Shown: positions 38,832 to 61,124, counted from the stretch's first letter. The stretch is DNA of 64,000 bases from Acidobacteriota bacterium (GCA_965248695.1 CBDFKD010000002.1:4736001-4800000), one strand, 5' to 3'. Numbers and translations: made by a program. The notes: generated by a model not told the origin, from the sequence alone.

Positions 38832-38872
38832 GATGCTGAAGTCTCCGTCAACCGTCCTGTTACGCGCCCTTC

Positions 38873-43241: not shown

Positions 43242-43762
43242 CGCTCGTCCTCGGGAGCAGTCTCGCTGACGGACTGGATGGCGGCGACGATACGGTGGTA
43301 CACGCCGCAGCGGCAGACGTTGCCCTCCATGTGGCGGGTGATCTCTCGCGCCGACGGGTTCGGGTTGCGTCTCAGCAGCGCCACCCCGGAGACGATCATT
43401 CCGGATGTGCAGTAGCCGCACTGCAGGGCATCCTGACGAAGGAAAGCTCTTTGTAGCGGATGCAGCTGACCGTCTCGGGCAAGACCCTCGATCGTCGTGA
43501 TCGCCCGGCCGCGGAGATCACCAACGGCCGTGATGCACGAGCGCCGCGGTGTGCCGTCGACGAGCACAGTGCACGCGCCGCACTGACCTTCACCGCAGCC
43601 GTAGTGGCTTCCGGTGAGGCCGAGATCGTCGCGCAGCACCGACAGGAGCAGTCTGTGAGGATCGACATCGACGCGGACGTTCTTACCGTTGATGCGCAGC
43701 TCGGCGAGCCGACGCGCTCTCAGCGCTGCAGGTCGCCTGATACTTCCGTGTTCGGTTGACAT
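43238..43762 (-). CDS. (2Fe-2S)-binding small subunit
   Basis: 'YGCGEGQCGACTV', 'QCGYCTSG', 'NVCRCG'. Start uncertain (43762 or 43834). Confidence 0.92.
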   Translation of the reverse strand: MSTEHGSIRRPAALRARRLAELRINGKNVRVDVDPHRLLLSVLRDDLGLTGSHYGCGEGQCGACTVLVDGTPRRSCITAVGDLRGRAITTIEGLARDGQLHPLQRAFLRQDALQCGYCTSGMIVSGVALLRRNPNPSAREITRHMEGNVCRCGVYHRIVAAIQSVSETAPEDER

Positions 43763-43855
43763 GTGCCCAGAGGCTATCGCCACCGCGTCGTCGACGACAG
43801 GGGGCGCTGGAACGGTGCTTCGCTCGGTAGCCATAGTGCCCGGCCGTCGACAGCG

Positions 43856-45801
43856 TCAGGAGACGACTAGGATCACTTCTGCTGAGGCATCGCCGATGCC
43901 GCAGGCGTGGACCGTCCGCACGCGCACGAAGTACGTGCCCGCAGCGACTCCGTTCGCCACGAAAGTCGTGCCGGTGCTCCCGGTGTCGAAGTTGGCCAGG
44001 TCGGATAGTCCCGTCGTAGATCCCGCCTCGATCATGTACGAGGTGGCAGCCTCGGCCCCCGGAGTCCAGCTGAGCGTGATTCGGGAGCCACTGGCCGAGG
44101 CGGTCAGGTTTCCCGGCACGCCGGCCGTTGTGTCGCAAGCGCTCGTGGGGTCCTCGACCATGGCCACCACGTTATTGGATTGTGCGCTCGTCCCGGCAGC
44201 GTTCACGGCGCTCACGGTGAGGTTGAAGGTCGCGCTGGCAACATTCGTGGCCGTGAACGAGGTGCTGGCGTTGCCGGTGTTGAAGTCCGCCAGATCGTTG
44301 CCAGAGGGAGCGGAGCCGGCCTGGATCCGATACGAGGTGGGCTCTCCGCCCGCGGCGGGTGCGCTCCATTCCAGGGCCACCGTCGAGTCGTTGACCTCCA
44401 CCTCCAGCTCTTCCGGGGGGCCGGGCGCCGTCGCCTCGCGGCCGGATAGCCTGCGTCGATCACGGGCGAGCCACCAACCAGCGTGTAGCCCTCGGTGATG
44501 CTGTCGCCAAAAGCCAGCCAGCGGCGTGACGAGGACATCTTGCCGACGATCGGTGCGGGGAACGAGCTTGTCGGGGCCACGTCGGCCGCCCGCCCCACGA
44601 CCACCTGAAGATCTGCGGCCCCACCTCGGGACCGGGCACCGGCGCCCTCCGCCACGGTCAGCCCGCCGCGCAGGTTCTTCCATCCCAGACGAAGCCGGCC
44701 GTCGGCGGTGGCTGCAGCGGCGATGTCGGCGTTGGCCGACAGGACGACATCTCGGGGCCGTTGCCACGAACGCTCGCCGAGGCGACTCCAGCGCACGACG
44801 CTTCGCTTTGAACCCGGGATGTTCTCGGCCACTGTCCAGATCAGGCTCAATTGGCCCCGCGAGGCCAGCGCGATCGGAGAGCTGCTAGCGCTGCGTGAGA
44901 CCGTTCGCGGCGCGTCCCATCCTTGCCGAGGATGCCCGACAACGGCTTCCGTCCAGTATGCGTGTTTCCGGAAGGAGCTCCAGGCGATCAACCAGCGGTC
45001 GCCGCTCACGGCGATGCTTGGCGCAACGTCGGGTGTCTCGTCGCGTGTCAGCGCAAGCGGTCGATCCCATCCCGCCGACCCGCGCCAGCTCACCCATATC
45101 TCGGCGTGGCCAGCATCATCGGCGGCCCAGACGACAGCTGGCAACCCTCGATCGCTCACTGCGATCGCCGGAGCCATGGGCTCGCCGGATGGCTGCGGCA
45201 AGCGTTCGGGAGAGCTCCAGCCGTCACCCAGCCGCTGCGACGCGTAGAGACCGGGGCGTCCGCGGTTGCCGACTTCATCGGACGCAATCCACACAGCCCA
45301 GAGTGATTCGCCACCCGAGGCCAGTGCAGGGTGACGATTGTATGCCCCGGCTGAAGGGCCGTTCTCGGGGGGCTGCCAGCGCCCCCGGTCGTATTGCTGC
45401 GCCCAGAGCCGGCTTGCCGACCCTCGAGATCGCGATGCGACGACCCAGGTCGAGCCATCGGCTCGAGCCGCAGCCGCAGGCTGGCCGTCGCGACCGGTCG
45501 ACGCAGGTCCGAGGCGGCGCGCCGGCATCTCCGGCGGCACCGCACCGTACACGCTGGTGCCAGCCACGGAGTCATCGGCAGCGCGCCAGATCGAAGCCGG
45601 TGTGTCGGCTGCCGTCACCACCGGGAGCCCGACGAACAGCCGCTCGCGAGCGCCTTGCACGGAGGCCAGCCCGGCGCTGATCTGGGGCGTCGCCAGGCCG
45701 ATGGAAACCAAGCACACCAGCAACAGTCGAGGACTCCATCCGTGATGCCTCCGCGGTGCATTGAACCGGGCGGCGCTGGTGCTCTGACGGGTGGAACTCA
45801 T
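43856..45801 (-). pseudogene. Secreted multidomain protein (repeat N-terminus + truncated SGNH/GDSL + two FN3 domains), frame-disrupted near 44440
   Basis: ORF 45801 has a signal peptide and reaches 'AFGDSITEGY...GYPA', then loses sense. A different frame carries 'PGPPEELEVEVNDSTVALEW...YRIQAGS' and a second FN3 to the stop at 43856 but has no start of its own. Confidence 0.75.
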
Positions 45802-46346
45802 CGACGCTGGCTGGTGACCGGGGGCTCGCGGTTGGGCGCGAAATGGAGAGAGGGAGACGTGTTGGCCACCGGATGCTACTGGGAGTCCAAGCGCGCGGCA
45901 AGAGGGGGTTTGGACGCCGGGGAGTGAGGCGTAGACACGTCAGTCTGGAGGGGACAACGGCGGTCAAGTACGCTCTCAGCTACGCAGGTATTGACATCGA
46001 GACACGCCGAATCCGTCTGCAGCACCTCGTTCAGAATCGACGCCTAGCGCGTCTTCTCCGGAGCCGGATTCGGACGGTCATCCGCTGAGCCGAACGGCGT
46101 GTCGCGTCGGGTCGTTTCGAATACCACGAATCCTCAGCGCGCAGACGAGGTCGTATCCAGGGTCGGGGCCGTCGTGTCGCACCATCGCCGACGGAAGCAA
46201 GGTTACGGCGAGCGTTGCCGGGACGATCGCGTGCGCCTATTCTTGGCCGACCTCGAGCCGCGCATGCGCCACCGATGTCGGTACGGCGGTTCCTGAGACG
46301 AGCCGGCCACCGGCCCGACTGGAAGCCTGCTGCAGGACCGGAGATC

Positions 46347-47588
46347 ATGAACGCCGCCACCGCTACCACCGAGCAGATCCGCCGGCAGTTCCCCGCGCTG
46401 GGGCGACAGTGTCAGGGGCTGCCGGTCGCCTATTTCGACGGCCCGGGTGGCACCCAGGTGCCCCGTTCGGTCGTCGAAGCGATGGTCGAGTACCTCTACG
46501 GCCACAACGCGAACGCCGGCTGGGCCTATCCATCCAGCCAGGAGACGGACGGTCATATCGCCGCGGCCCGCGAAGCCGTCGCATGCCTGCTCAACGCGAC
46601 GCCGTCCGAGATCGTGTTCGGGGCGAACATGACCACCCTGACGTATCGCTTGGCTCGCGTCCTCGGGCATGTGTACGGACCGGAGGCGGAGATTCTCGTC
46701 AACGAGCTCGAGCATCACGCCAACGTCGATCCGTGGATCGAGCTCGGACGGCAAACAGGAGCCCGGGTCAGGTCGGCGAAGATGGATCCGTCCACCGGAC
46801 AGATCGACTGGCCGGATCTCGAGCGTCAGTGCAGCCCGCGCACGCGTCTGATTGCCATCGGCGCCGCATCCAACGCCCTGGGCACCATCAACGAAGTAGC
46901 CCGGGCGTCCGAGCTGGCACGAAGCGTCGGGGCGCACCTGTTCGTCGACGCGGTGCATCTGGCCGCCCACGAGCTCATCGATGTTCGAGCGATGGGGTGC
47001 GATTTCCTGGTCTGCTCGTCCTACAAGTTCTACGGGCCTCACATGGGAGCCCTCTTCCTTCGCGGCGAGCTTCTGAGCTCACTCGAGTTCCCGCGGGTCG
47101 CGCCGGCGCCGGATTGCGCTCCCGATCGGGCTGAGACCGGTACCCGGAATCATGAGGGGCTCGCCGGGGTCACGGCCGCGGTCGACTTTCTCGCCTCGTG
47201 CGGCGCGGGCGAGGTCCGGCGTCAACGACTCGAGAGCTTCTTCGAGAGCCAGCAAACGGCTGGCGCCGAGCTGACGCGCCAGTTGTGGGACGGGCTATCC
47301 GCCATCGCCGGGGTCCGCGTCGTCGGTCCTCCTCCGGAGGTGCCGCGCACGCCGACCGTCAGCTTTGTCGTCGAGGGGATAGAGGCTGAGGCGGTAAGCG
47401 CCCGGCTGGCTCAGGAGGCCATCTTCACCTCGCACGGGGACTTCTATGCCAGTACGGCCGTTGCCCGATTGGGGTTCTCCCAGCAGGGTCTGGTGCGCGC
47501 CGGTTGTGCTTGCTACACGACTACCGCCGAGGTAGAGCGGTTGGTGGACGGCGTGCGACGCATTGCCGCTGGAGGAGACGGCCCATGA
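46347..47588 (+). CDS. Cysteine desulfurase-like protein (class V PLP aminotransferase)
   Basis: 'YFDGPGGTQVP', 'GANMTTL', 'VDAVH', 'SSYKFYGPH', 'ETGT'. Confidence 0.92.
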   Translation: MNAATATTEQIRRQFPALGRQCQGLPVAYFDGPGGTQVPRSVVEAMVEYLYGHNANAGWAYPSSQETDGHIAAAREAVACLLNATPSEIVFGANMTTLTYRLARVLGHVYGPEAEILVNELEHHANVDPWIELGRQTGARVRSAKMDPSTGQIDWPDLERQCSPRTRLIAIGAASNALGTINEVARASELARSVGAHLFVDAVHLAAHELIDVRAMGCDFLVCSSYKFYGPHMGALFLRGELLSSLEFPRVAPAPDCAPDRAETGTRNHEGLAGVTAAVDFLASCGAGEVRRQRLESFFESQQTAGAELTRQLWDGLSAIAGVRVVGPPPEVPRTPTVSFVVEGIEAEAVSARLAQEAIFTSHGDFYASTAVARLGFSQQGLVRAGCACYTTTAEVERLVDGVRRIAAGGDGP

Positions 47589-47758
47589 CCATCGGTCCGG
47601 GCGAAGCCGTTGTCGAGACGCTCGTGTTGAACAACAACTCCTGGGACGCCGAAGTGGCCAGCGTGATCGAGGTCCTCGTGGATCCCGAGGAGATACCTTT
47701 CCCGGCGCGCGCCGCCGACATCTATACCAACTGGAAGCCGCCCGAGCCGGCGGGATGA
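47585..47758 (+). pseudogene. 57-aa remnant of a thiamine-diphosphate (TPP)-dependent enzyme with internal deletions
   Basis: ATGA-coupled start. 'GEAVVETL' (TPP enzyme N-terminus) + 'VLNNNSW' (end of the TPP-binding motif) + 'VIEVLVDPEE' (C-terminal strand), all fused in one frame. Confidence 0.65.
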
Positions 47759-47786
47759 CCGGCAGGCGTCGCAAGCAGATCTGAAT

Positions 47787-48950
47787 ATGGGCTACCGACT
47801 CAACGGGCAGCAACAGCTTATTTGCGACGGCGTGCGCGATGCGTGCCGGGCGTTCCCCGATGAATACTGGCGGGCTCTCGAGCGGCAGGATGCCTACCCC
47901 ACCGAGTTCGTCGACGCGCTGACCGAGGGGGGTTGGCTCGCGGCGCTCATTCCCGAGGAATATGGCGGGATGGGCCTCGGGGTTCTCGAAGCCAGTCTGA
48001 TCCTCGAGGAGATGAACCGCTCTGGCGGCAACGCTGCCGTGTGTCACGCGCAGATGTACATCATGGGAACGCTGCTGCGGCATGGCTCGGACGAGCAAAA
48101 GCAGCGGTTCCTGCCGCCGATTGCTGGCGGCGAGTTGCGGTTGCAGGCCTTCGGCGTGACCGAGCCCACGACGGGGACCGATACAACGCGCACGCAGACC
48201 ATGGCGGTGCGCCACGGCGACCGCTACGTCGTAAATGGGCAGAAAGTCTTCATATCAAGGGCATTGCAGTCGGATTTGATGCTGCTGCTGGTGCGGACAA
48301 CGCCACTGGATGCGGTTGACAAGCGGACCCACGGGCTCTCGCTCTTGCTGGTCGACCTGAAGGAAGCGGTGGGCAACGGCATAACGATCCGTCCGATCCG
48401 GACGATGATGAACCACCAGAGCACCGAGTTGTTCATCGACGACCTCGAGGTGCCCGTTGATCGACTCGTGGGCGAGGAAGGGCGGGGATTTCACTACGTG
48501 CTCGACGGGATGAACGCCGAGCGCGTGCTGATCGCCGCCGAGTGCATCGGTGACGGCCGTTGGTTCATCGAACGGGCGAGCAAGTACGCCTGCGATCGGG
48601 TGGTGTTCGATCGACCGATCGGCCAGAACCAGGGCGTCCAGTTTCCGCTCGCCCGAGCTCACGTAGCGGTTGAGGCAGCTGACCTGATGCGCTTCCATGC
48701 GGCCGAGCTGTTCGATGCCGGCGAACCCTGCGGCGCCGAGGCCAACATGGCCAAGCTGCTGGCCGCCGACGCCTCCTGGGAGGCGGCGAACGTGGCGCTA
48801 CAGACGCACGGTGGGTTCGGCTTTGCGGAGGAGTACGACATCGAGCGTAAGTTTCGCGAGACCCGGCTGTACCAGGTGGCACCGGTATCGACCAACATGA
48901 TCCTGGCGTTCATCGCCACCAAGGTGCTGGGGCTGCCGAGGTCGTATTGA
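47787..48950 (+). CDS. Acyl-CoA dehydrogenase
   Basis: 'IPEEYGG', 'VTEPTTGTD', 'NGQKVFIS', 'FDRPIGQNQGVQF', 'QTHGGFGF'. Confidence 0.95.
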   Translation: MGYRLNGQQQLICDGVRDACRAFPDEYWRALERQDAYPTEFVDALTEGGWLAALIPEEYGGMGLGVLEASLILEEMNRSGGNAAVCHAQMYIMGTLLRHGSDEQKQRFLPPIAGGELRLQAFGVTEPTTGTDTTRTQTMAVRHGDRYVVNGQKVFISRALQSDLMLLLVRTTPLDAVDKRTHGLSLLLVDLKEAVGNGITIRPIRTMMNHQSTELFIDDLEVPVDRLVGEEGRGFHYVLDGMNAERVLIAAECIGDGRWFIERASKYACDRVVFDRPIGQNQGVQFPLARAHVAVEAADLMRFHAAELFDAGEPCGAEANMAKLLAADASWEAANVALQTHGGFGFAEEYDIERKFRETRLYQVAPVSTNMILAFIATKVLGLPRSY

Positions 48951-49014
48951 TGCGCTTCGCAGTACCCGGCCAACCGGCGATAGGCACCACGCTCGCGACG
49001 TGGCAGGGGTCGGC

Positions 49015-50193
49015 ATGGTGATGCCGCTCGACGACGTCACCGTAGTGGCGCTCGAGCAGGCTGTGGCCGCCCCGTTCGCCAGCCGGCAGCTGGCAGATCA
49101 CGGAGCGCGCGTCATCAAGATCGAGCGCCCCGGCACAGGGGACTTCGCTCGCGCCTACGACACCCGCGCCAACGGCCTGGCGAGCTACTTCGTGTGGCTC
49201 AATCGTGGCAAGGAATCGCTGACCCTCGATCTCAAACATCCGGAGGGCAAGGAGCTACTGGCGAAACTGCTGGCGGACGCCGACGTGTTCCTGTCGAACC
49301 TTGCTCCGGGGGCGGTGGAGAGGCTCGGTTTCGGCGCCACGACGCTACGACGACGCCACCCGCGGTTGGTGGTGTGCGAGGTGTCGGGCTACGGCATCGG
49401 CGGTCCCGACGAGCAACGCAAGGCGTATGATCTGCTCGTGCAGGCCGAGGCCGGCCTGATGTCGGTAACTGGCACGGACGAACAGCCCAGCAAGGTGGGT
49501 ATCTCGGTGGCCGACATCTCCGCCGGTATGTACGCCTTCTCGGGCGTTCTGACCGCGCTGTACCAACGAGCTCGGAGCGGCTCGGGGACGATCGTGCGCG
49601 TGGCGCTTCTGGACACGCTGGCTGAATGGATGAGTCAGCCGATGTACTACGCCGGCGAGGACGGTGAGCCGCCTCGACGCAGCGGCGCAGAGCACGCGAC
49701 GATCGCGCCTTATGGCCCCTTCGTCTGTGCCGACGGGCAGGTATTTCTGGGGATTCAGAATGAGCGTGAGTGGGCGGTGTTCTGCGACCAGGTGCTCGGC
49801 GACGCGACCCTGGCCGCGGACGCAGAGTTCGCCGACAACTCGGCGCGCGTAGCGAACCGGCAGCGGCTGCAGGAGATCGTCGAGGGCGTGCTGTGCGACC
49901 GCTCCGTCGTCGACGTCCTCAGACAGCTTGATGCAACCGGCATTGCCAGTGCGAGAATGAGATCTGTGGGCGAGCTGGTCGAGCACCCGCAGCTGACAGC
50001 ACGTGATCGGTGGCGCCAGGTTGACTCGCCCGTCGGGCCGTTGCCCGCCTTGCTGCCGCCCGTGATCATGGAAGGAGTAGAGCCCGCGATGGGGCCGGTA
50101 CCCGATGTCGGCGAGCAGACGGAACAGATTCTTCGAGAGTTGCAGCTCGATGACGTTACGATCTCGCAGTTGCGGCAGCGCCAAGTCATCTGA
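49015..50193 (+). CDS. CaiB/BaiF (class III) CoA-transferase
   Basis: 'AAPFASRQLADHGARVIKIERP', 'LNRGKESLTLDLK', 'KAYD'. Confidence 0.95.
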   Translation: MVMPLDDVTVVALEQAVAAPFASRQLADHGARVIKIERPGTGDFARAYDTRANGLASYFVWLNRGKESLTLDLKHPEGKELLAKLLADADVFLSNLAPGAVERLGFGATTLRRRHPRLVVCEVSGYGIGGPDEQRKAYDLLVQAEAGLMSVTGTDEQPSKVGISVADISAGMYAFSGVLTALYQRARSGSGTIVRVALLDTLAEWMSQPMYYAGEDGEPPRRSGAEHATIAPYGPFVCADGQVFLGIQNEREWAVFCDQVLGDATLAADAEFADNSARVANRQRLQEIVEGVLCDRSVVDVLRQLDATGIASARMRSVGELVEHPQLTARDRWRQVDSPVGPLPALLPPVIMEGVEPAMGPVPDVGEQTEQILRELQLDDVTISQLRQRQVI

Positions 50194-50219
50194 TCCCGAA
50201 GGGGCGACGAGAACAGGAG

Positions 50220-50726
50220 GTGAGCGTGGCGATCAAGGAAGGTTGGACCGGCCGCGTGTACGAAGATTTCGAAGTTGGAGACATCTACGAGCATCCCCTC
50301 GGGCGCACGATCACGCAGACCGACAACAGCTGGTTCACGCTCCTGACGCAGAACACCAACCCGATCCACTTCGATCGTGAGCTCAGCGCCGCCACCGAGT
50401 TCGGCAAGCCGCTGGTGAACTCCGCTCTGACCCTGGCGATGGTGACCGGGCAGTCGGTGACCGATCTGTCGCAGAACGTCATGGCGAACCTCGGCTGGGA
50501 CAAGGTGCGTCTCCCGGCGCCGCTGTTCGAGGGCGATACGCTGTATTCCCGCAGCGAGGTGCTGGAGAAGCGAGAGTCGAGATCCCGCTCCAACGTCGGC
50601 ATCGTGAGGGTAAAGTCGAGCGGCTACAAGCAGGACGGCACATTGGTAATCGAGTACGAGCGCACCTTCATGGTCTACAAGCGTGGTCATGTGCCGCAGC
50701 GCCCGCGGCCGCAGCCGCCCGAGTGA
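50220..50726 (+). CDS. MaoC family (R)-specific dehydratase/hydratase
   Basis: 'YEDFEVG', 'GRTITQTDNSWFTLLTQNTNPIHFD', 'GDTLY'. AGGAG RBS before GTG. Confidence 0.92.
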   Translation: MSVAIKEGWTGRVYEDFEVGDIYEHPLGRTITQTDNSWFTLLTQNTNPIHFDRELSAATEFGKPLVNSALTLAMVTGQSVTDLSQNVMANLGWDKVRLPAPLFEGDTLYSRSEVLEKRESRSRSNVGIVRVKSSGYKQDGTLVIEYERTFMVYKRGHVPQRPRPQPPE

Positions 50727-50783
50727 GCGCATGACGGAGCCGTCGCTGACCGAGCGCATGACAGAGCCGTCGCTGACCGAGCG
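50725..50783 (+). repeat. 27-bp tandem duplication covering the start of the MmgE/PrpD gene
   Basis: gagcgcatgacggagccgtcgctgacc / gagcgcatgacagagccgtcgctgacc / gagcg (one mismatch). Gives MTEPSLTER twice. Confidence 0.95.
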
Positions 50784-52122
50784 GCTTGCCGCATGGCTCG
50801 TCGGCCGCCGCGAGGCCGGACTCCCGGCATCGGTGCTCGATACCGCACGCACCTATGTCGTCGACTGGCTGGGCTCGCTGCTCGCCGGCACGAAGTCTGT
50901 TCCTGGCGGCATGCTGTTGGCTCACGCGGCCTCCAGATCCGGTGGCCCGTGCAGCGTCGCGGGGCTCGCGGTCGACTGCTCACCCGAGCTTGCGGCACTG
51001 ACGAACGGTGGCCTGTCGCACATCGTGGAGATGGACGACTTGCACCGGTTCTCGGTGGTGCATCCTGCCGCAGTCGTGATCCCGGCCAGCCTGGCTGTGG
51101 CCGAGGCTGAGGGCGCCACTGGCGATGCGTTCCTGGCCTCCGTGGTCGCTGGATACGAGGTCGCGATCCGTGTAGGCGAGGCTGTCGGCCCGACGCATTA
51201 CCGCCACTTCCACAACACCGCAACGTGCGGCGGTTTCGGCGCCGCAGCGGCCGCCGGCTGGCTGATGGGATTGGGTCGCGACGAGCTGGTGTGGGCGCTC
51301 GGCAATGCCGGCACGCAGGCATCGGGCTTCTGGGAATTCAACGCTGACGGTGCGATGAGCAAGCACCTGCACGCCGGGCGGGCGGCGTCCAACGGAGTGT
51401 TGGCGGCGGCGCTTGCGGCCCACGGCTTCACCGGCGCCCGCCGAATTCTCGAGGGCGAGCGAGGACTGTTCGCCGGCATGGCACCCGACGCCACCCCCGA
51501 GCGTGTGGTCGAGAACCTCGATTCTCCTGAGCTCAAGATCGGTGGAACGTCGCTGAAGCCGCATGCGTCGTGTCGCCATACGCATGCTCCCGTGGATGCG
51601 GCGTTGGAGCTACGTGCGCAGCTGGGAGACAACGGAGTCGAGGCCATTGAATCGGTGCAGGTCGACACCTACCAGGCGGCACTGGATCTGTGTGACCGGC
51701 CCGACCCACAAACACCGTACGAGGCCAGCTTCAGCTTGCAGTACTGCGTCGCCTCGGCGGTGCTGCGTGGGAGCGTCGGGTTGGCGGAGTTCATGCCGCC
51801 GAGTGTCGCCCAGGCCGACGTACGCCGCCTGCTGGCGGCAGTCGAGTGCCGCGTCGAGCCGCAGGTGGAAGCCGCGTATCCCGAGCAGTGGAGATCTCGC
51901 GTGCAGCTGAGGCTAGCCGGCGGCACAACGCTCGAAGCTGAAGTCCATGCGCCGCGCGGCGATCCAGAAAACCCGCTGTCGGCGGCCGAGGTCGAGGCCA
52001 AGTTCCGGCGGCTCGCAGAGCACGCCGACCGAGACGGTGAGGCCGATCAGTGGCTGGCTTGGGTGCGCAGCCTGGGCGCGGGTCCGCTGGGTACGAACCG
52101 GCTCCCCTGGGCGGCTCGTTGA
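50731..52122 (+). CDS. MmgE/PrpD family protein
   Basis: 'SHIVEMDDLH...HP', 'GYEV', 'KPHASCRHTH', 'PRGDPENPL'. Alternative start at 50758. Confidence 0.92.
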   Translation: MTEPSLTERMTEPSLTERLAAWLVGRREAGLPASVLDTARTYVVDWLGSLLAGTKSVPGGMLLAHAASRSGGPCSVAGLAVDCSPELAALTNGGLSHIVEMDDLHRFSVVHPAAVVIPASLAVAEAEGATGDAFLASVVAGYEVAIRVGEAVGPTHYRHFHNTATCGGFGAAAAAGWLMGLGRDELVWALGNAGTQASGFWEFNADGAMSKHLHAGRAASNGVLAAALAAHGFTGARRILEGERGLFAGMAPDATPERVVENLDSPELKIGGTSLKPHASCRHTHAPVDAALELRAQLGDNGVEAIESVQVDTYQAALDLCDRPDPQTPYEASFSLQYCVASAVLRGSVGLAEFMPPSVAQADVRRLLAAVECRVEPQVEAAYPEQWRSRVQLRLAGGTTLEAEVHAPRGDPENPLSAAEVEAKFRRLAEHADRDGEADQWLAWVRSLGAGPLGTNRLPWAAR

Positions 52123-52185
52123 CGAGAACGTAGGCGCCAGGGACAACCGCGCGTCTGTCCCGGTATGGGGTTGCGGAGACCCACC

Positions 52186-52191
52186 TATAAT
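52186..52191 (+). promoter_or_regulatory. Putative sigma70 -10 element for the NIPSNAP gene
   Basis: Perfect TATAAT in a GC-rich intergenic region, about 60 bp upstream of GGAGG-ATG 52252. No clear -35. Confidence 0.5.
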
Positions 52192-52251
52192 GGCGCTTCC
52201 ATTCTCTCGTCCGCGCGTCGCGGGCGATCGGTGCTCCCGTGGGAGGACAGC

Positions 52252-52680
52252 ATGATCCGCAGATACGGTCTTGTGGTGTTGGTGGTGGCGGTCGCGTTCG
52301 TTGCCGGTATGGTGGTCGATCAGGTGGCCACGGCGGAAGCGCAGCACAACAAGATCTACGAGCTGCGCACCTACACCACGGCCGAGGGGCGGCTGCCGGC
52401 GCTGCTGCAACGCTTTGGTGGTGGCGAGCTTGATCTGTTCGACAAGCAGGGCATGGCGAGTGTCGGATACTGGGTGCCAGATGACGCGCCGGAGTCGGAC
52501 AACACCATGATCTACATTCTGGCGCACGACAGCCGCGAAGCGGCGGCCGCTTCCTGGCAGGGATTCATGGACGACCCGGCGTGGAAGACGATGCGAGAGG
52601 AGTCGCTGGTTGACGGGCCAATCGTGATCAAGGTCGAGTCGACGTTCATGAACCCGACCGACTTCTCGCCCGCCAAGTAG
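52252..52680 (+). CDS. NIPSNAP family protein with signal peptide
   Basis: 'IYELRTY', 'VGYW', 'YILAH.SREAA..SW..F..DP.W', 'PTDFSP'. Confidence 0.9.
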
Positions 52681-52715
52681 CCGTCACGTTTGTTCAGGCG
52701 ACGGTCCGCCAGCTG

Positions 52716-53663
52716 ATGGGGCGATACCGAAGGCTCGGACCCGTGCTCGTGTGCTTGACACTCGCGAGCCTTGCGGTTGGCACCGAGGCGCGCGCGCAGT
52801 CCTCGTTGATCGGCGCACGCGGTTGCATCGCGCACGCCGGTGCGAGCGCCCATGCCCCGCCGCACACGATGGCGGCCTACCGGCGCGCGTTGGAACTGGA
52901 TGCCGATTTCGTCGAGCCCGATCTGCAGCTCACGCGCGACGGTGTGCTGGTGTGCCTGCACGATCTGTCGCTCGAACGAACGACCGATGTCGAGGAAGTC
53001 TATCCCGAGCGTGCCACGGAAGTCGTGACGGCTGGGGTCACGGCGCGCACCTGGCTCGTGAACGACTTCACCCTGGAAGAGATTTGACGACTCGATGCCG
53101 GGGCCTGGTTCGATCCGGCGTTCGCCGGTGAGCGCGTACCGACGTTACAGGAGCTGATCGACCTGGCGGCCGGCAAGGCCGGCATCTACCCGGAGACCAA
53201 GGACGTCGAGTTCTATCTCGGACGCGGGATCGATGTCGATCTGAAGCTGCACCAATTGCTGGCGTCCAACGGACTGGACACGCGCGCCGGGCAGCGAGCC
53301 ACGCCGGTGCTCATCCAGTCGTTTCATGAGCGCAGCCTGCGCACGCTTAGACGGCTGGGAGGTGATCAGTACGATCTCATCCAGCTGGTCTGGATCCACC
53401 AATGGGAGCAGTTCCTCAGCGATGAAGGGCTCGACCATGTAGCGGAGTACGCTCAGGGCGTCAGCCCGTTTCTGACCTTCGTGCTCGGCGATCCGACGCT
53501 GGTGGGTCGGGCCCACGAGCGCGGCCTCGCCGTTCACGCGTGGCAGGCGTTCGAGGCCTTTCCACCGACCGAGCTCGGCGACGAGGCCGCCTATATTCGC
53601 TACCTGCTGGACGACGTGGGACTTGACGGTTTGTTCGTTCATGATCCGGGGCTCTGCCCCTGA
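52716..53663 (+). pseudogene. Glycerophosphodiester phosphodiesterase interrupted by an in-frame TGA (53085-53087)
   Basis: '[22 protein letters not shown]'. Reading through the stop gives 'FTLEEI*RLDAGAWF...ERVPTLQE...YPETK...IQSF' in the same frame to 53663. Confidence 0.88.
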
Positions 53664-53682
53664 GACGGTCCCAGGAGGAACC

Positions 53683-54081
53683 ATGAGAACACTCGCCGTC
53701 GCGACCGCAACGACGCTGGCGCTGCTCGGCGCCGGATCAGGCCTGGCCGCGGAGGATCCCAGGGTCCCGAGCGTCGAAGACATCATGGCGTTGCGGATCG
53801 TCAGCTCGGCCGAGATCTCGCCCGACGGAGCCCATGTGGCCTTTGTCCAGCATGGCGAGAACGATCGGCGGGTAACGATCGCCAATGGCTACCAGTTCCG
53901 CCAGCTGTTGCTGGACAAGGGCATCGAGGCACGCATGATCGTCTACAACGGAATGGGCCACGGTCCCTCGACTCCGCGCATGCGGCGCGCGATCAACGAG
54001 CATGCGCTCGCCTGGTTCCAGGAACACCTGTTTGGCGGTGACGCTCCTGACTTCGTCCATCCGGTTGCGGCCGACAAGTAG
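53683..54081 (+). pseudogene. S9 (prolyl oligopeptidase/acylaminoacyl peptidase) gene with a large in-frame internal deletion
   Basis: AGGAGG RBS and signal peptide. 'SVEDIMALR.VS...ISPDG..VAFV' is joined directly to 'QHGENDRRV...Y.GMGH...WF'. Propeller body and GxSxG are absent. Confidence 0.85.
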
Positions 54082-54109
54082 GCGACGAGCCGGGGATCGA
54101 AGGGCTGCG

Positions 54110-56209
54110 ATGAGCTATCGGATCGGCGTCGACATCGGGGGCACGTTTACCGATCTGGTGCTGGTGGACGACGACGGGGCCGTCTTCGAGGTCGCGAAAG
54201 TGTTGACGACCTCCGCCGATCCTGCCCAGGCCGTGGGGGAGGGGGTCGAGGCACTGTTGAAGGCGACTGGAGTGCCGGCCGGGTCGATCTCGCACGTCGT
54301 GCATGGCACGACGCTCTTCGCCAATGCGCTGATCGAGCGCAAGGGGGCGCGCACGGCGCTGATCACCACTGCCGGGTTCCGTGACGCCCTGGAGATTGCG
54401 CGCGAGCATCGCTACGACATGTACGACCTGCGGCTGGAGCGTGCCGCGCCGCTGGTACCTCGCCGCCTTCGCTACGAGGTTGACGAGCGGGTGTTGGACG
54501 ATGGCTCCGTTCACCGGCCGCTCGACCTCGACAGCGCCGTGCGAGTCATCGACGAGTTGCGCGCAGAAGCCGTCCAGGCGGTGGCCGTCTGCTTGCTCCA
54601 CAGCTATGCCAACGCGGACCACGAGCAGGCCATCGGACAGCTGCTGCGCGAGCGTGCTCCGGACCTTGCGTGCTCGCTGTCCTCGGAAGTGGCGCCTGAG
54701 ATCCGGGAGTACGAGCGGACATCGACGACGGTGGCCAACGTCTACATCCAGCGGCTGGCCGAACGGTACCTGACCCGCCTCGTCGAGCGGCTGCGAGAGT
54801 TGGGTGTTGCCGGGACGCTGTTCATCATGCAGTCCAACGGTGGTACCTGTACCGTCGAGGCGGCCTGCGAGCTGCCAATCCATATCGTCGAGTCGGGACC
54901 GGCGGCGGGCGCGCTGGCCGCAGCGCACTACGGTCGGCGAATGGGGCAGTCGGACCTACTGTCGTTCGACATGGGCGGTACGACGGCCAAGGCGGGTGTG
55001 ATCGAGGACGGCGAGCCGCTCATCGCGCGCGAGTTCGAGGTGGCGCGCGTGTACCACTTCAGGCGCGGCAGCGGGCTGCCGATCAAGGCGCCGGTGATCG
55101 AGATGATCGAGATCGGAGCGGGCGGCGGCAGCATCGCCCGCCTCAACCGCCTCGGGTTGCTGGAGGTGGGGCCCCACAGCGCTGGCTCCGATCCTGGTCC
55201 CGCCTGCTATGGGCGCGGCGGGACGGCGCCGACGGTCACCGACGCCGACCTGCTGCTCGGGCTCCTCGATCCCGACTTCTTCCTCGGCGGAACCATGACG
55301 CTGGACGGCACCGCCGCCCGCGACGCCATCGCGAAACAGGTCGCAGAGCCGTTGGATCTCGACCCGGTGCGCGCCGCCTGGGGCATTCATCAAGTGGTCA
55401 ACGAGAGCATGGCTGCGGCGGCGCGGGTGCACGCTGTTGAGCGCGGCAAGGACCTGCGCCGGTTTCCGTTGTTCGCCTTCGGCGGCGCCGGGCCGGTGCA
55501 CGCGGATCGCGTGGCGCGGATCCTCGGGTGCCCGGGTTTCGTCTGCCCACGAGGTGCCGGTGTTACCTCGGCGGTCGGATTCTTGGCCGCACCCCTGTCC
55601 ACCGAATCCGTGCGCACGCTGCCTGGCAGGCTGGCGGAGCTGGACTGGTCGGCGGTCAACGATTGCCTATCGGAGATGGAGCTCGAGGGACGCCAGGTTC
55701 TGGAGGCCACGGTTCCTCCCGAGCAGATCACGGTTCGTCGATGGGGTGATTTTCGCTACAGCCTGCAGGGGCACGAGATGCGTGTTGCGGTGCCTGGCGG
55801 CACGCTCGGCAGCGCCAGTGAACCGCAGTTACGCGCCGCCTTCGAAACGGAATACGAAGCCATCTACGGGCGGACGCCCCCCGGCCCGGAGATCGAGGCA
55901 GTGAGCTGGCGGCTGTCGTGCTCCGGTCCACTGCCGGATCTGCACCTGCCCGAGGCTTCGTCCGGCGAGGTGGGTTCGACGCCAAACGCCCTCGAGGGCG
56001 AGGGCGCGATCAAGGGGAGGCGCCCGGTGTACCTGCCGGAGGAATCGGATCTGGTGCCGGTGCCGGTTTACGACCGCTACGCGCTGGTGTCCGGCGAGCG
56101 TTTCACCGGCCCCGCGATCGTCGAGGAGCGCGAGTCGACCGTAGTTGTCGGTGCGGGAGCAGACGCTCGGATCGACGATTCACTGAACCTGGTGGTGGAC
56201 TTCGGATGA
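54110..56209 (+). CDS. Hydantoinase A / 5-oxoprolinase family subunit
   Basis: 'IGVDIGGTFTD', 'HGTT', 'ESGPAAG', 'DMGGTT', 'IGAGGGSIA'. Confidence 0.95.
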   Translation: MSYRIGVDIGGTFTDLVLVDDDGAVFEVAKVLTTSADPAQAVGEGVEALLKATGVPAGSISHVVHGTTLFANALIERKGARTALITTAGFRDALEIAREHRYDMYDLRLERAAPLVPRRLRYEVDERVLDDGSVHRPLDLDSAVRVIDELRAEAVQAVAVCLLHSYANADHEQAIGQLLRERAPDLACSLSSEVAPEIREYERTSTTVANVYIQRLAERYLTRLVERLRELGVAGTLFIMQSNGGTCTVEAACELPIHIVESGPAAGALAAAHYGRRMGQSDLLSFDMGGTTAKAGVIEDGEPLIAREFEVARVYHFRRGSGLPIKAPVIEMIEIGAGGGSIARLNRLGLLEVGPHSAGSDPGPACYGRGGTAPTVTDADLLLGLLDPDFFLGGTMTLDGTAARDAIAKQVAEPLDLDPVRAAWGIHQVVNESMAAAARVHAVERGKDLRRFPLFAFGGAGPVHADRVARILGCPGFVCPRGAGVTSAVGFLAAPLSTESVRTLPGRLAELDWSAVNDCLSEMELEGRQVLEATVPPEQITVRRWGDFRYSLQGHEMRVAVPGGTLGSASEPQLRAAFETEYEAIYGRTPPGPEIEAVSWRLSCSGPLPDLHLPEASSGEVGSTPNALEGEGAIKGRRPVYLPEESDLVPVPVYDRYALVSGERFTGPAIVEERESTVVVGAGADARIDDSLNLVVDFG

Positions 56210-56246
56210 TGACAACGTCGCGACAACGCGCAATGGTGCAAGCCTG

Positions 56247-57950
56247 ATGGATCCGATCCTGCTGGAGGTGCTGTGGAACCGTCTGATCGGCGTCGTCAAC
56301 GAGCAGGCCGCCGCCCTCATGCGGACCTCGTTCACCTCGGTGCTGCGGGAGGCCGGGGATCTGTCGGCAGGCATCTTCGATCGGCGCGGCCGCATGATCG
56401 CGCAAGCGGTCACCGGTACCCCGGGGCACATCAACTCGATGGCCACAAGCATGGGGCACTTCCTACGTGCCTTCCCGGTCGATTCGCTGCAGCCAGGAGA
56501 CGTGCTGGCAACCAACGATCCCTGGAAGACCGCCTCGCAGCTCAACGACATCACCGTCATCACGCCGATATTCCACCGATCCCGCCTGGTGGCGTTCTTC
56601 GGCAACACCTGTCACGCGCTCGATATCGGGGGCCGCGGTCTGTCGGCCGATTCGCGCCAGGTGTTCGAGGAGGGGCTCTTCATACCGATCATCAAGCTGC
56701 ACGATGCGGGGAGCCCGAACGAGACGCTGCTGGCGCTGCTGCGGGCCAACGTGCGGACACCCGACGAGGTGCTCGGCGACCTTCATGCCCAGGTGGTCGC
56801 CAATGAAGTGGGCGGTCACCAGCTCCTCAAGAGCCTGGCGGAGTTCGATCTGGCCGATATCGAGGATCTGTCCGACCTGATCGTCGAACGCTCGGAGGCG
56901 GCCATGCGCGAGCGGATCGCTGCGATCCCGGACGGCCAGTACGACTCCGAGGTGGTGTGCGACGGGTTCGAGGAACCGATCCGTATCCGCACGACGATCG
57001 TCGTCGACGGGGACTCGCTGCAGGTCGACTACGCGGGTACGTCGCCCGAAGTGGGGTGGGGGATCAACGTGGCGTTCAACTACAGCCACGCCTACACGAC
57101 GTACGGGGTGAAATGCGCCATCTCGCCCGATGTACCGAATAACGAAGGCAGCTTTCGGCCGGTGAGTGTGACGGCGCCGGCCGGGTGCATCCTCAACGCC
57201 CAGCCGCCAGCCGCGATCGGCGGCCGACACCTGATCGGCCACTACCTGCCCTGCGCCATCTTCGAGGCGCTCGCCGAGACGCTGCCCGACCAGGTCTCCG
57301 CTGCCGGCTTCGACAGCCTGTGGGACACCCAGGTTTACGGTCACGATACGCGCACGGATGAGCCGTTCAGCTACGTCTGGTTTTCCTCCGGTGGCACCGG
57401 TGCCATGGCGCATCGCGATGGTCTGTCCGCCACCGCGTTTCCGAGCGGCATCGCGGGCGTGCCTGTGGAGGTCATCGAAGCGGTATCCCCTGTGATGCTC
57501 GAGCGGCGCGCATTGTTGCCCGATTCGGGCGGACCAGGGCGATTCCGAGGCGGCCTCGGGCAGGTGATGAAGATCGCTGTGCGCACTGAGCGTCCCTATA
57601 TGTTCTCCGGCCTTTACGAGCGCGTCCAGTTTCCCGCACCGGGGCTTGCCGGAGGTGGAGCCGGGGCCCCGGGCGCCGTGCGTGCCAGCGGCGACACACC
57701 CGTCTACGCCAAGATCCGTGAGCAGCTGCCGGCCGGCACCGCGGTAACGATCGAGTTGCCGGGCGGCGGTGGCTACGGGCCCCCGGAGGAGCGCGATCCG
57801 GCCCTGGTGCTCGAGGACGTACTTGACGGCTACGTGTCGATCGAGCGTGCCCACGATGACTACAAGGTGGTCATCGACCAGGAGACGATGCAGCTGGACG
57901 CGACCGAGACGGCGCGGCTACGCGGGCAGGCTTCCTCTGGAGTGTCCTAA
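56247..57950 (+). CDS. Hydantoinase B / oxoprolinase family subunit
   Basis: 'DPILLEVLWNRL', 'RTSFTSVLREAGD', 'NDPW', 'DSGGPGRFRGGLG', 'PGGGGYGPP'. Confidence 0.95.
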   Translation: MDPILLEVLWNRLIGVVNEQAAALMRTSFTSVLREAGDLSAGIFDRRGRMIAQAVTGTPGHINSMATSMGHFLRAFPVDSLQPGDVLATNDPWKTASQLNDITVITPIFHRSRLVAFFGNTCHALDIGGRGLSADSRQVFEEGLFIPIIKLHDAGSPNETLLALLRANVRTPDEVLGDLHAQVVANEVGGHQLLKSLAEFDLADIEDLSDLIVERSEAAMRERIAAIPDGQYDSEVVCDGFEEPIRIRTTIVVDGDSLQVDYAGTSPEVGWGINVAFNYSHAYTTYGVKCAISPDVPNNEGSFRPVSVTAPAGCILNAQPPAAIGGRHLIGHYLPCAIFEALAETLPDQVSAAGFDSLWDTQVYGHDTRTDEPFSYVWFSSGGTGAMAHRDGLSATAFPSGIAGVPVEVIEAVSPVMLERRALLPDSGGPGRFRGGLGQVMKIAVRTERPYMFSGLYERVQFPAPGLAGGGAGAPGAVRASGDTPVYAKIREQLPAGTAVTIELPGGGGYGPPEERDPALVLEDVLDGYVSIERAHDDYKVVIDQETMQLDATETARLRGQASSGVS

Positions 57951-57971
57951 GGGGCACCGGTTCGGCGGCTC

Positions 57972-58016
57972 TTGACCTTCTATATATAGATGATCTATAT
58001 ATAGAAGGTCTATAGA
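57972..58016 (+). promoter_or_regulatory. Promoter/operator of the PadR operon: perfect 17-bp inverted repeat
   Basis: gaccttctatatataga-tga-tctatatatagaaggtc (57974-58010). It overlaps TTGACC (57972) and a TATATA -10-like hexamer, about 50 bp upstream of padR. Confidence 0.8.
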
Positions 58017-58061
58017 AGTGATCGACACGAATTCTCGAGCGACGCAGCGAGCGAGCATCCG

Positions 58062-58412
58062 ATGCCGGCCGATCCCACCGTCGAGGTTCAGAGCCTGACG
58101 CGCACGTGTAACGAGGCGCTGATTCTCGCGGCGTTGCGCGCTAGCCCAAAACACGGCTATCAGTTGGCGCTGGAGGTGGAGGCACGCGGCGGGGGCGGCT
58201 TTCGCCTGCAGCACGGGACGCTGTATCCGATTCTGCACAGGCTGGAAAAGCGAGGCCTGATCGACGGTACATGGTCGCAGGCGGATTCGGCTCGCCGGCG
58301 AAAGCTCTACACGCTGACCGCTGAGGGGCGTCGGTACGCGGCCCGCCAACTCGAGGCTTGGCGGTGCTTCGTGGATCGTTTCGTCGCCGCAACGGAGGAT
58401 TCGGAGGCATGA
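58062..58412 (+). CDS. PadR family transcriptional regulator (short type)
   Basis: 'ILAAL...PKHGYQL', 'GTLYPILHRLE..GLI...W', 'RRKLYTLT.EG'. Confidence 0.95.
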   Translation: MPADPTVEVQSLTRTCNEALILAALRASPKHGYQLALEVEARGGGGFRLQHGTLYPILHRLEKRGLIDGTWSQADSARRRKLYTLTAEGRRYAARQLEAWRCFVDRFVAATEDSEA

Positions 58413-58876
58413 TGAACGCCCGCGCCCGGACGGAGCCCGGCATGCCGAGCCGCTTCGCCGACATCATCAGCAAGACCGGTGACCGACTGCGGTTGCCGCT
58501 ACCAGCGCGCACGCGGATTCTGCTCGAGATCCACGCCGATCTCGAGGACCTCTACGAGTACTTCCGCACCCAGGGCATGTCCGATACTGATGCCCATGAA
58601 GAGGCGCTCCGTAGGTTCGATCTGTCCGACGCGGCTCTCATCGCCCTGCTGATCGGATCCCTCGGCTGGTGGCTGCAGGCGCTGGCGATCACGCATCGCG
58701 TGGCCGGCGCATCCGTCTCGGTATCCGACGTCGCCGCCGGGCTCGCCGCCGGGGCCGCCACCGCAGTCATCGCGATGACCGGCGCGCTGACCTGCTGCCT
58801 GATCTGGACGCTGCTCGCCCACAAAGTCGCAGCGGTGGAGCGAGCCGAGGCCGAGGTTCTGCTGGAGTCTGGATGA
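58409..58876 (+). CDS. PadR-associated membrane protein (HAAS-like N-terminal helical domain + 2 TM), possibly internally shortened
   Basis: ATGA overlap with padR. 'RILLEIHADLEDLYE...GMS...A...ALRRF' followed abruptly by hydrophobic segments. Confidence 0.6.
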   Translation: MMNARARTEPGMPSRFADIISKTGDRLRLPLPARTRILLEIHADLEDLYEYFRTQGMSDTDAHEEALRRFDLSDAALIALLIGSLGWWLQALAITHRVAGASVSVSDVAAGLAAGAATAVIAMTGALTCCLIWTLLAHKVAAVERAEAEVLLESG

Positions 58877-58921
58877 CCTGGCTCGAGTACGAGCTACCCC
58901 ACAACCACTGAGGAGGCACAC

Positions 58922-59299
58922 ATGCTGTCCACTTTCCAAACGATGGGGCCGTTCGCCTGGCCGCTACTCATCATCGCCGTTGCCAACCTGGCAATGATCG
59001 GCCTCCGGGCACGCGACCTCTACGGGTCCGGAGCGGCTTCGGATGCCCGGTTGGGCGCGCGCATCAACGCCGTCCTGTTCTGGGGCGTCGTGGCGCTGCT
59101 GCTCGGCTACCTCAGCCAGTACGCTGGCCTGTACTTGTCGATGACCGCCATCGCCCAGCTCGACGGAGTCAGCACCGGCCTGGTCGCAAAGGGGATCGCG
59201 GAGTCGATCATGGCGACGATCTTCGGTCTCGTCATCATGGTTCTGTCGAGCATCGCATGGTTCCTGCTGCGAGCACGCCACCGCAGTCTCGCGGCGTAG
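58922..59299 (+). CDS. Small MotA/TolQ/ExbB-like membrane protein
   Basis: GAGGAGG RBS, 3 TM segments, 'MGPFAWPLL', 'VAKGIAESIMATIFGL'. Confidence 0.7.
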   Translation: MLSTFQTMGPFAWPLLIIAVANLAMIGLRARDLYGSGAASDARLGARINAVLFWGVVALLLGYLSQYAGLYLSMTAIAQLDGVSTGLVAKGIAESIMATIFGLVIMVLSSIAWFLLRARHRSLAA

Positions 59300-59429
59300 T
59301 CGTTTCGCCGTCACAGACGGTCGCGCCCGCCAACGGCGAGGGATTGGAATCGGCGCGAGCCACGGAATAGTGTCTGCGGACAGCCGCACCCAAGCAGAGG
59401 TGCTTGCACGCCAACCTTGGGAGAACGTC

Positions 59430-61124
59430 ATGAGGTCGACTCGACTCTTTCGGTGCATTGCCGTGCTCGGCACCCTCCTGTCGTTGGCCTGTGCCGGACG
59501 CGAGGCCGATGATCCACAGGCGGCCCTGGCCGCGCGCAACGCCCTCGCCGCGCGTGCCGGAGCCCCGTTGTTCGATGGCATGGGCGACCATCACTACCCG
59601 GTCACCACTAGCGACGCCGATGCGCAGCGCTATTTCGACCAGGGTCTGGTGATCGATTTCGCCTTCAATCACGCCGAGTCCGTGCGCTCGTTCCGCGCCG
59701 CGCAGCGACTCGATGAGGGCTGCGCCATGTGCTACTGGGGCGAGGCGTTGGCGCTGGGCCCCAACATCAACGTGACCTTCAACGGCAAGGTCGTGATGGC
59801 CGACGAGGATCGGCTGGCGGCTCACGCCGCGGCGCAGAAAGCCGTCGCGCGCAACGGCAATGCGACGCCGAAGGAACGAGATCTCATCGACGCGCTGGCG
59901 GTCCGCTACAACGGTGACCCGACGACGGAGCGCGAGCCGCTCGACCTGGCGTACGCCGACGCGATGCGTCAGTTACATGCGAAGTACGCTGACGATGACG
60001 ACGTGGCAGCCCTGTTCGCGGAGTCGTTGATGAACACCATGCCGTGGGACTACTGGCTCGATCCCGAGAGCCCGAAGCCCGAGACGGTGGAGGTGATCGG
60101 CGCTCTCGAGGGGGTTCTCGCCCGGACGCCCGATCATCCGCTGGCCATCCACCTCTACATCCACGCGGTCGAGGCGTCGTCGTCGCCGGAGCGTGCCGAA
60201 GTGGGTGCCGACGTGCTCGTAAGTCTGGTGCCGGGCGCGGGGCACCTGGTGCACATGCCGGCGCACATCTACTGGCGAGTGGGTCGCTACCACGATGCCT
60301 CGGAGGTGAATGTCCTCGCCGCCGCGGTGGATGAGGCTTACATCGCAGCGTGCAACGCCCAGGGCTTTTACCCCGCTGCCTACTACCCCCACAACATTCA
60401 CTTCCTGTGGGCTGCGTCGACCATGGAGGGGCGCAGCGAGATCGCCATCGACGCGGGCCGTCGCGTCGCCGCCAACATCCAGTTGGAGATGATCGAACAG
60501 TTCCCCGGGGTCGAGTTCTTCCACACCATCCCGCTGCTCGCGCTGACACGATTCGGACGCTGGGACGACGTGCTGAGCGAGCCGCAACCGGCCGAGCAGC
60601 TGGATTTCTCCAACGCCATATGGCGCTACGCTCGCGCCACTGCCTACGCCGCCCAGGGTGATCTGACTGCGGCGAGGGCCGAGCGGCGAGTTCTCGTTGA
60701 GCTACTCGAAAGCGACAAGATCCATCACATCGACTCGGTCGACTATCCCGCCAGCTTGCTGCTGGCGATCGCCGACGCGCTGGTTCTCGGCGACATTGCC
60801 ATGACCGAGGGCGATCTCGGCGCGGCGGTGGGGCACTTCGAGCGCGCCGTCAGCACCCAGGACGAGCTTCCGTACACGGAGCCGCCGTTCTGGTACTACC
60901 CGACGCGGCAATCCCTGGGCCATGCGCTCCTGGCGAACGGCGACGCGGCTGCAGCCGAACAGATCTACCGCGACGATCTCGGCATACATCCGCGCAACGG
61001 CTGGTCCATGTTCGGGTTGGTGCAGAGCCTCGAGGCGCAAGGGAAGGACGCTACGGACGCCCGCGCGCGGTTCGAGCAGGTGTGGTCGTTGGCCGATGTG
61101 ACCCTGACTGGCTCGCGGATGTAG
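59430..61124 (+). CDS. TPR-like helical lipoprotein (conserved His-rich family)
   Basis: Lipobox 'LSLAC', 'AQRYFDQGL...FAFNHAES', 'HPLAIHLYIH', 'GHLVHMPAHIY', 'YYPHNIHF'. Confidence 0.8.
   Translation: MRSTRLFRCIAVLGTLLSLACAGREADDPQAALAARNALAARAGAPLFDGMGDHHYPVTTSDADAQRYFDQGLVIDFAFNHAESVRSFRAAQRLDEGCAMCYWGEALALGPNINVTFNGKVVMADEDRLAAHAAAQKAVARNGNATPKERDLIDALAVRYNGDPTTEREPLDLAYADAMRQLHAKYADDDDVAALFAESLMNTMPWDYWLDPESPKPETVEVIGALEGVLARTPDHPLAIHLYIHAVEASSSPERAEVGADVLVSLVPGAGHLVHMPAHIYWRVGRYHDASEVNVLAAAVDEAYIAACNAQGFYPAAYYPHNIHFLWAASTMEGRSEIAIDAGRRVAANIQLEMIEQFPGVEFFHTIPLLALTRFGRWDDVLSEPQPAEQLDFSNAIWRYARATAYAAQGDLTAARAERRVLVELLESDKIHHIDSVDYPASLLLAIADALVLGDIAMTEGDLGAAVGHFERAVSTQDELPYTEPPFWYYPTRQSLGHALLANGDAAAAEQIYRDDLGIHPRNGWSMFGLVQSLEAQGKDATDARARFEQVWSLADVTLTGSRM

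Follow-up and report, generated by a model that had tools for sequence, protein, structure and literature searches.

The 64,000-nucleotide stretch of Acidobacteriota DNA analysed here (GCA_965248695.1, CBDFKD010000002.1:4736001-4800000; hereafter the window, to whose positions all coordinates refer) carries about 14 genes between 43.8 and 58.9 kb, among which four have lost part of their interior and a fifth is interrupted by a nonsense codon. The window lies on contig 2 of a metagenome-assembled genome of 5.89 Mb in two contigs (G000), which is 96% complete by marker genes and has about 65% G+C. We consider it very probable that these five genes, listed below with the intact partner of one of them, are pseudogenes of an ordinary kind that lie clustered in an accessory, flexible part of a large free-living Acidobacteriota-type genome.

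44441..45801, minus strand: 5' piece of a GDSL-FN3 gene, with an N-terminal domain, GDSL block I (FGDSITEGY) and about 15 further residues, continuing out of frame to a stop at 44212
43856..44440, minus strand: 3' piece of the same gene, with two fibronectin type III domains in another frame than the 5' piece (Pfam fn3, E=1.5e-14, two stretches)
47585..47758, plus strand: remnant of a thiamine pyrophosphate (TPP)-dependent enzyme, 57 codons; its start ATG and the stop TGA of the preceding aminotransferase overlap as ATGA
52716..53663, plus strand: glycerophosphodiester phosphodiesterase (GDPD) gene interrupted at 53085-53087 by a single in-frame TGA, the codon being CGT in the same-genus genome G003; no indel relative to G003
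53683..54081, plus strand: remnant of an S9 (prolyl-oligopeptidase family) peptidase, 132 codons, with the signal peptide and the first 53 and last 79 residues kept; join at 53844/53845
58062..58412, plus strand: intact PadR regulator that is paired with the truncated membrane protein (Pfam PadR, E=1.1e-23, profile positions 1-74 of 75)
58409..58876, plus strand: PadR-linked membrane protein that has lost about 90 central residues, with an in-frame join at about 58640-58655; its true start is likely near 58442

An initial annotation of the window had described the TPP, S9 and GDSL-FN3 genes as hollowed out, with distant parts of each protein joined directly, and had named the membrane protein as a possible fourth case. 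Full-length relatives were found for all four, and the gutted genes are real and derived. The GDPD nonsense codon is a fifth lesion of the same 15 kb that was absent from that list; the Pfam matches of the two GDPD halves cover profile positions 1-65 and 136-243 of 244.

For the S9 peptidase a full-length orthologue is present at the same locus in G003, which is syntenic there with 80-92% DNA identity. The two DNA sequences are collinear for 6.2 kb up to position 53842, are then separated by 1,616 bp found only in G003, and are collinear again from 53848; relative to the 669-aa G003 protein, 537 codons (1,611 bp) are missing and the junction at 53844/53845 (±3) is in frame. Because a second congener, G002, also has a complete orthologue (668 aa), with a NIPSNAP gene upstream of it, the full-length form is ancestral. 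The remnant lacks what defines an S9 peptidase, a beta-propeller joined to an alpha/beta-hydrolase domain with a Ser-Asp-His triad: residues 54-590 of the G003 and G002 proteins are gone, most of the fold is lost and the catalytic-serine motif GWSQGG lies in the deleted part, a GMGHG stretch being retained, and Pfam Peptidase_S9 matches only profile positions 148-210 of 213. At the breakpoints, G003 has two in-register patches, identical at 16 of 27 positions including the 9-nt exact repeat CGAGAACGA, which rank second among 2,008 positions in the gene. The exact event is unreadable because this proxy is 15% diverged and the window has 3 extra nt. On the retained codons the ratio of nonsynonymous to synonymous substitution rates (dN/dS) is 0.23 between G000 and G003, compared with 0.21 for the intact pair G003 and G002 over the same codons, and the deletion is therefore young relative to the split of the species.

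The TPP remnant is of a different age. Its 57 codons match no Pfam family at E<=1, and a search among longer proteins, in which 141 candidates were scored, returned four TPP-dependent relatives of 566-567 aa carrying PF02776, PF00205 and PF02775, the best of which is 76% identical over the last 41 residues. In local alignments, three overlapping pieces of the remnant are collinear on a 566-aa enzyme: codons 1-14 correspond to residues 1-14, codons 12-20 (TLVLNNNSW) to residues 468-476 and codons 20-57 to residues 530-566. For the relative P0001, no shuffle out of 300 scored as high as the real alignment for any piece; for the other three relatives, the score of piece A was reached in 1-5 of 300. 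The initial annotation was thus right that a longer TPP enzyme is reduced here to its ends, but the single direct join that it proposed is replaced by two in-frame joins, as the three collinear scraps require, the first of them falling within a shared T/A-L/V-V motif. The product is a descendant of the family and not a working member, which would comprise three domains of about 170 residues each and a complete C-terminal TPP-binding domain.

The same TPP remnant stands at the same place in G003, where it lacks the first 63 bp and has gained an extra base and stops, which dates the TPP loss to before the two species separated; it is old, and the S9 loss is young. The acyl-CoA dehydrogenase gene downstream of the eroded G003 remnant is intact (97% protein identity), which argues that the mini-ORF (open reading frame, ORF) is not needed for coupling. 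Nor is it conserved as an ORF. In a search of 41 related genomes the only meaningful matches were the window itself and G003, the other eight having E >= 0.17. The full-length relatives available for this gene are non-syntenic only.

In G003 the class-V aminotransferase gene that precedes the TPP remnant is missing 90 bp, in frame, close to the 3' end (L011, G003 contig C26 6151-6281, compared with window 47375-47657), and its identity between G000 and G003 is 78%, compared with 84-87% for its neighbours. By these alignments, the aminotransferase gene may be on the same path of decay as the TPP gene.

In the GDSL-FN3 gene the junction, which the initial annotation had placed near 44440, was located at about 44441, where the two pieces meet out of frame. 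The SGNH hydrolase domain has lost about 496 bp, the corresponding gap in the orthologues holding 495-498 bp. These orthologues, in G002 (70% identity), G004 (68%) and G001 (54%, an intact open frame of 820 aa), were assigned by sequence and not by locus; G003 is without the gene at the corresponding locus. SGNH/GDSL hydrolases are recognised by conserved blocks I (GDS), II, III (GxND) and V (DxxH). The gene in the window no longer encodes a member of this family, about 165 codons of the orthologues, including GTNDI and ADHLHP in G001 and G004, being absent and the frame being shifted; the 5' ORF had no match in Pfam. This deletion is probably young.

The G002 and G004 orthologues (L025 and L026) are both split by frameshifts at runs of 7-8 G, which could be either long-read homopolymer errors or further independent decay within the genus.

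The possible fourth case named by the initial annotation was borne out. The PadR-linked membrane protein has 155 aa, compared with 246-251 aa in all four relatives found among 5.8 billion proteins, and the only 155-aa form in that set is the window's own. Three genomes of the same order have open frames of 256-289 codons that match residues 5-77 and 82-154 of the window protein, with about 100 extra residues between, and the lost part corresponds to two or three predicted membrane helices in the relatives. The protein has no match in any of the four congeners, and its full-length relatives are, as for the TPP gene, non-syntenic only.

Just upstream of the PadR gene, at 57969-58015, lies an AT-rich 23-nt palindrome (91% complementary, arms 1 nt apart) in surroundings that are otherwise 65% G+C, and it is likely an operator or promoter.

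All junctions are present in sequencing data. Four public runs from one sample and one study, probably the source of the assembly and none of them recorded as RNA, contain the stretch, and what was compared was contigs built from them by a different assembler, not raw reads. The contigs of run X1 cover 43001-48539, 52360-54430 and 54401-59500 and those of run X4 cover 43297-48530, 52360-54038 and 57192-59500, in both cases with 0 differences; contigs of run X2 cross the GDSL and TPP junctions, also with 0 differences. Every junction is thereby crossed by second-assembler contigs of two or three runs, identical throughout.

The five lesions stand among intact genes. The stretch begins with the GDSL-FN3 secreted protein on the minus strand, the class-V aminotransferase and the TPP mini-ORF, continues with an acyl-CoA dehydrogenase, a family-III CoA-transferase, a MaoC hydratase and an MmgE/PrpD protein, then with a NIPSNAP protein, the GDPD phosphodiesterase, the S9 mini-ORF and hydantoinases A and B, and ends with PadR and the small membrane protein, the last two of the approximately 14 genes. 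The genes flanking the lesions have full-length Pfam coverage, and the TPP and S9 remnants are each followed immediately by an intact gene. The initial annotation had reported that operon coupling is preserved and that no insertion sequence (IS) or transposase is visible, and both statements held: the ATGA overlap between the aminotransferase gene and the TPP remnant is kept, the neighbours are intact by Pfam, and no transposase or integrase domain was found in 60 window ORFs scanned. Across the rest of the window, where 50 ORFs were scanned, no comparable clearly gutted domain was seen and most ORFs match Pfam profiles end to end.

Two further observations concern the intact genes. The acyl-CoA dehydrogenase, CoA-transferase and MaoC block (47826-50699) has 71-77% DNA identity to locus L015 of G033, a genome from another family of the phylum, and is as close to it as to the congeners G001, G002 and G004; judging from these identities, horizontal transfer could be involved. 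At the 5' end of the MmgE/PrpD open frame, a 27-nt tandem duplication (50725-50778, 96% identical) encodes ERMTEPSLT twice.

To place these lesions in a wider context, the genome was compared with that of G003, of which 1.07 Mb were fetched and 0.91 Mb aligned, so that about 15% of the genome was covered. In 121 adjacent collinear block pairs there were 42 clean indels of >=150 bp, seven of them inside a single ORF. Four are deletions in G000 (the S9 deletion of 1,611 bp and others of 171, 210 and 154 bp) and three are deletions in G003 (about 830, 985 and 1,167 bp); the S9 deletion is the only intragenic deletion above 600 bp in G000 within the aligned 0.91 Mb. MAFFT global alignment was unusable for four of the seven large-indel cases, gaps being put at the sequence ends, and tblastn frames were used. 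By tblastn, both ends are still present in the G003 genes with deletions of about 0.83 and 1.17 kb, in one case in frame, and the third gene keeps its last 17 residues only. The sister therefore has at least as many gutted genes, located elsewhere in its genome.

Disrupted ORFs, counted by a longest-ORF-coverage test, were about equally frequent on the two sides: 19 of 482 G003 ORFs are broken in G000 (3.9%) and 18 of 426 G000 ORFs are broken in G003 (4.2%). A first count of 135 lesions in 535 ORFs, obtained by translation from the first ATG or GTG, was rejected since start-site and alignment artefacts dominate it. The genome size of 5.89 Mb stands beside about 6.0 Mb for G002, 6.0 Mb for G003 and 5.7 Mb for G004, G001 being smaller (3.9 Mb in 240 contigs). 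Neither a high pseudogene load, as measured on 0.91 Mb, nor shrinkage relative to the sisters was found, as reductive evolution would entail.

Compared with G003 contig C26 (8-90 kb), the whole window (1-64000) is a mosaic, with blocks reordered, inverted, missing or matching elsewhere, whereas the next 205 kb adjoining it are collinear with G003 and contain no indel above about 520 bp. The juxtaposition of this patchwork with 205 kb of collinearity indicates a flexible region of the chromosome.

The following features of the G003 comparison lie outside the damaged genes. The G003 segment matching window 38621-40889, about 2.2 kb encoding an NAD/FAD-binding oxidoreductase, has three further matches in G000 at 85-89% identity, and by these matches the oxidoreductase appears to be a recently expanded paralogue family and, by Pfam, not an IS. 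In G003 the same insert of about 1,043 bp, with a 338-codon ORF, occurs at C26 89802-90889 and at C34 228389-229423 and is absent at both sites in G000, a pattern that would fit an IS-like element active in the sister species.

We propose that five dispensable genes were inactivated independently and at different times, four of them gutted by spontaneous deletions of 0.16-1.6 kb and the fifth by gain of a nonsense codon. The deletions would most likely have arisen by replication slippage or end-joining between short codon-phased similarities. The survival of the ends would need no special cause, since each deletion is shorter than its gene, and a deletion shorter than its gene that spares the neighbours is internal by definition. 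Deletions that reached the acyl-CoA dehydrogenase, CoA-transferase and hydratase block or the hydantoinase A and B genes may have been removed by selection, so that those now seen would be the survivors.

Several points weigh against this explanation. Five damaged genes among about 14 in 15 kb exceed the background of about 4-5%; by our own arithmetic, using 5%, such a density has a probability of about 4e-4 per stretch of this size and about 0.1-0.2 over the approximately 390 such stretches, which is suggestive of local relaxation and not of a new mechanism. The clustering is explained only by the flexible-region argument, which is itself indirect. Four of the five joins are in frame, as the initial annotation had noticed for most of them (P = 0.045 against one third, again by our own arithmetic); this excess is inflated because a reader of sequence alone recognises only in-frame remnants as mini-ORFs, and it agrees with the bias towards 3n deletions already published for pseudogenes. 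With a 15%-diverged proxy no clean microhomology is readable at any junction, and the S9 junction does not fall on the 9-nt repeat: it lies a few bases to its left and is 3 nt longer than joining the G003 patches in register would give. The counts of disrupted ORFs are upper bounds, obtained with a crude GC3 ORF filter that lets through some antisense false positives, on 0.91 of 5.89 Mb. Finally, the second-assembler contigs rule out collapse by the assembler but not a minority intact allele, all four runs coming from one sample.

The interpretation offered in the initial annotation was that the window displays a distinctive, recurrent mode of gene loss, in which short-homology deletions are selected to be in frame and non-polar and leave spacer mini-ORFs that keep coupling in a lineage under reduction. 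The proportion of in-frame joins, the ATGA overlap that is kept, the intact genes directly downstream of the TPP and S9 remnants and the clustering of the lesions all agree with it. We nevertheless regard this mode as improbable, given that a genome of 5.89 Mb in which no more than 3.9% of the tested ORFs are disrupted, a share matching that of its sister, does not look reduced, that the ages of the lesions differ, and that the S9 deletion is the sole one of its kind above 600 bp in the aligned 0.91 Mb. Moreover, the GDSL join is out of frame, in-frame remnants being the only ones that the first reading could notice, and the G003 TPP remnant has lost both start and frame while the gene downstream of it is still intact. 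No repeat common to the junctions occurs among the 20 direct families and 25 inverted pairs listed, of 59 and 49 found.

Equally doubtful is the idea that the deleted alleles are variants of one strain, with intact alleles coexisting in the population and the assembly representing the majority or a single haplotype. The genome is metagenome-assembled, with a modest depth of about 2-10x per run, and close to two of the junctions, at 53874/53876 and 58642/58643, one X2 contig stops and another begins. These breaks lack the 30-base (k-1) overlap of true graph branches and lie at a depth of 2-7 (4.5-6.9 at the latter), so that they are read as coverage gaps, and X1 and X4 contigs pass through the junctions without a branch, the depth in X1 (7.9-9.4) being equal to that of its flanking contigs. 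Among the joints and loose ends listed, none falls at the four junctions, by which the absence of an alternative allele is not demonstrated. In addition, the TPP remnant is fixed in two species, and coexisting intact alleles would leave the nature of the lesions unchanged.

A related proposal, slightly less probable still, is that end-preserving, in-frame gutting is favoured in this lineage because the stubs might act as translated spacers for the coupling, promoters or messenger stability of downstream catabolic genes. If it were true, the remnants would be selected structures and not debris, and stub ORFs kept in frame upstream of intact genes should be in excess across the genome.

An assembly or polishing artefact, with interiors collapsed or dropped by the assembler, was an alternative left by the initial annotation, and a two-contig metagenome assembly, presumably of long reads, in a genus whose G002 and G004 orthologues show homopolymer frameshifts, might invite it; it can be set aside almost entirely, as an independent assembler gave identical sequence across all junctions in two or three runs, the TPP remnant is independently present in G003, and a tblastn search of the rest of the 5.89-Mb assembly with full-length relatives, which the initial annotation had suggested, recovered only paralogues at <=36% identity and none of the missing interiors (at least 14 near-full-length S9 matches among them attest many paralogues in the genome). 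Just as remote is selection for functional mini-proteins, such as an S9 tail of 110 aa that is secreted or a membrane protein of two helices that partners PadR, for although the frames are open, the retained S9 codons have a dN/dS of 0.23 and the PadR partner gene is intact, an equal dN/dS is expected from a young deletion, the S9 catalytic serine is lost, no other short form of the membrane protein exists among the 5.8 billion proteins and the TPP remnant decays in G003.

The result bears chiefly on annotation. The damaged genes are very probably ordinary pseudogenes, but automatic pipelines would call the stubs small hypothetical proteins or partial TPP, S9 and GDPD genes, which have no place in metabolic reconstructions of this genome. 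As an illustration, the locus shows that a flexible region can accumulate deletions that differ greatly in age, that in-frame joins are common among them, and that junctions can be located to a few bases by reading the sequence alone. It raises no new question on the mechanisms of gene loss.

Erosion of bacterial pseudogenes under a deletional bias was reportedly described by Mira, Ochman and Moran in 2001. A bias towards deletions of 3n nucleotides in bacterial pseudogenes has been linked to microhomology, whose spacing is biased genome-wide to multiples of three (Genome Biol Evol 2018, PMC6054270). As far as the available part of that study goes, the likeness is an excess of in-frame deletions in genes without function, the breakpoints of S9 and of the first TPP join here lying in codon-phased similar patches; the difference is one of scale, with intervals of no more than 20 nt and indels of no more than 15 nt there, compared with hundreds to 1,611 bp here, where the microhomology is not exactly readable.

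With pseudogene erosion under deletional bias, as reportedly described by Kuo and Ochman (2009, PMC2817411; 2010, PMC2916853), the window shares shrinkage by deletions, remnants of mixed age between intact genes and no need of a mobile element. It differs in having several remnants within 15 kb of a large free-living genome with a low overall load, and large single deletions (0.16-1.6 kb) instead of many small ones. The relics of reductive genomes (Rickettsia, Mycobacterium leprae and the spacers of Buchnera; PMC2374718, PMC3164680) are reportedly likewise short pieces of genes between retained neighbours, but here there is no sign of reduction, the genome having 5.89 Mb, at most 3.9% disrupted ORFs and many paralogues. 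On these comparisons, the process of gene loss in the window looks like one of an already known kind and not a new mode.

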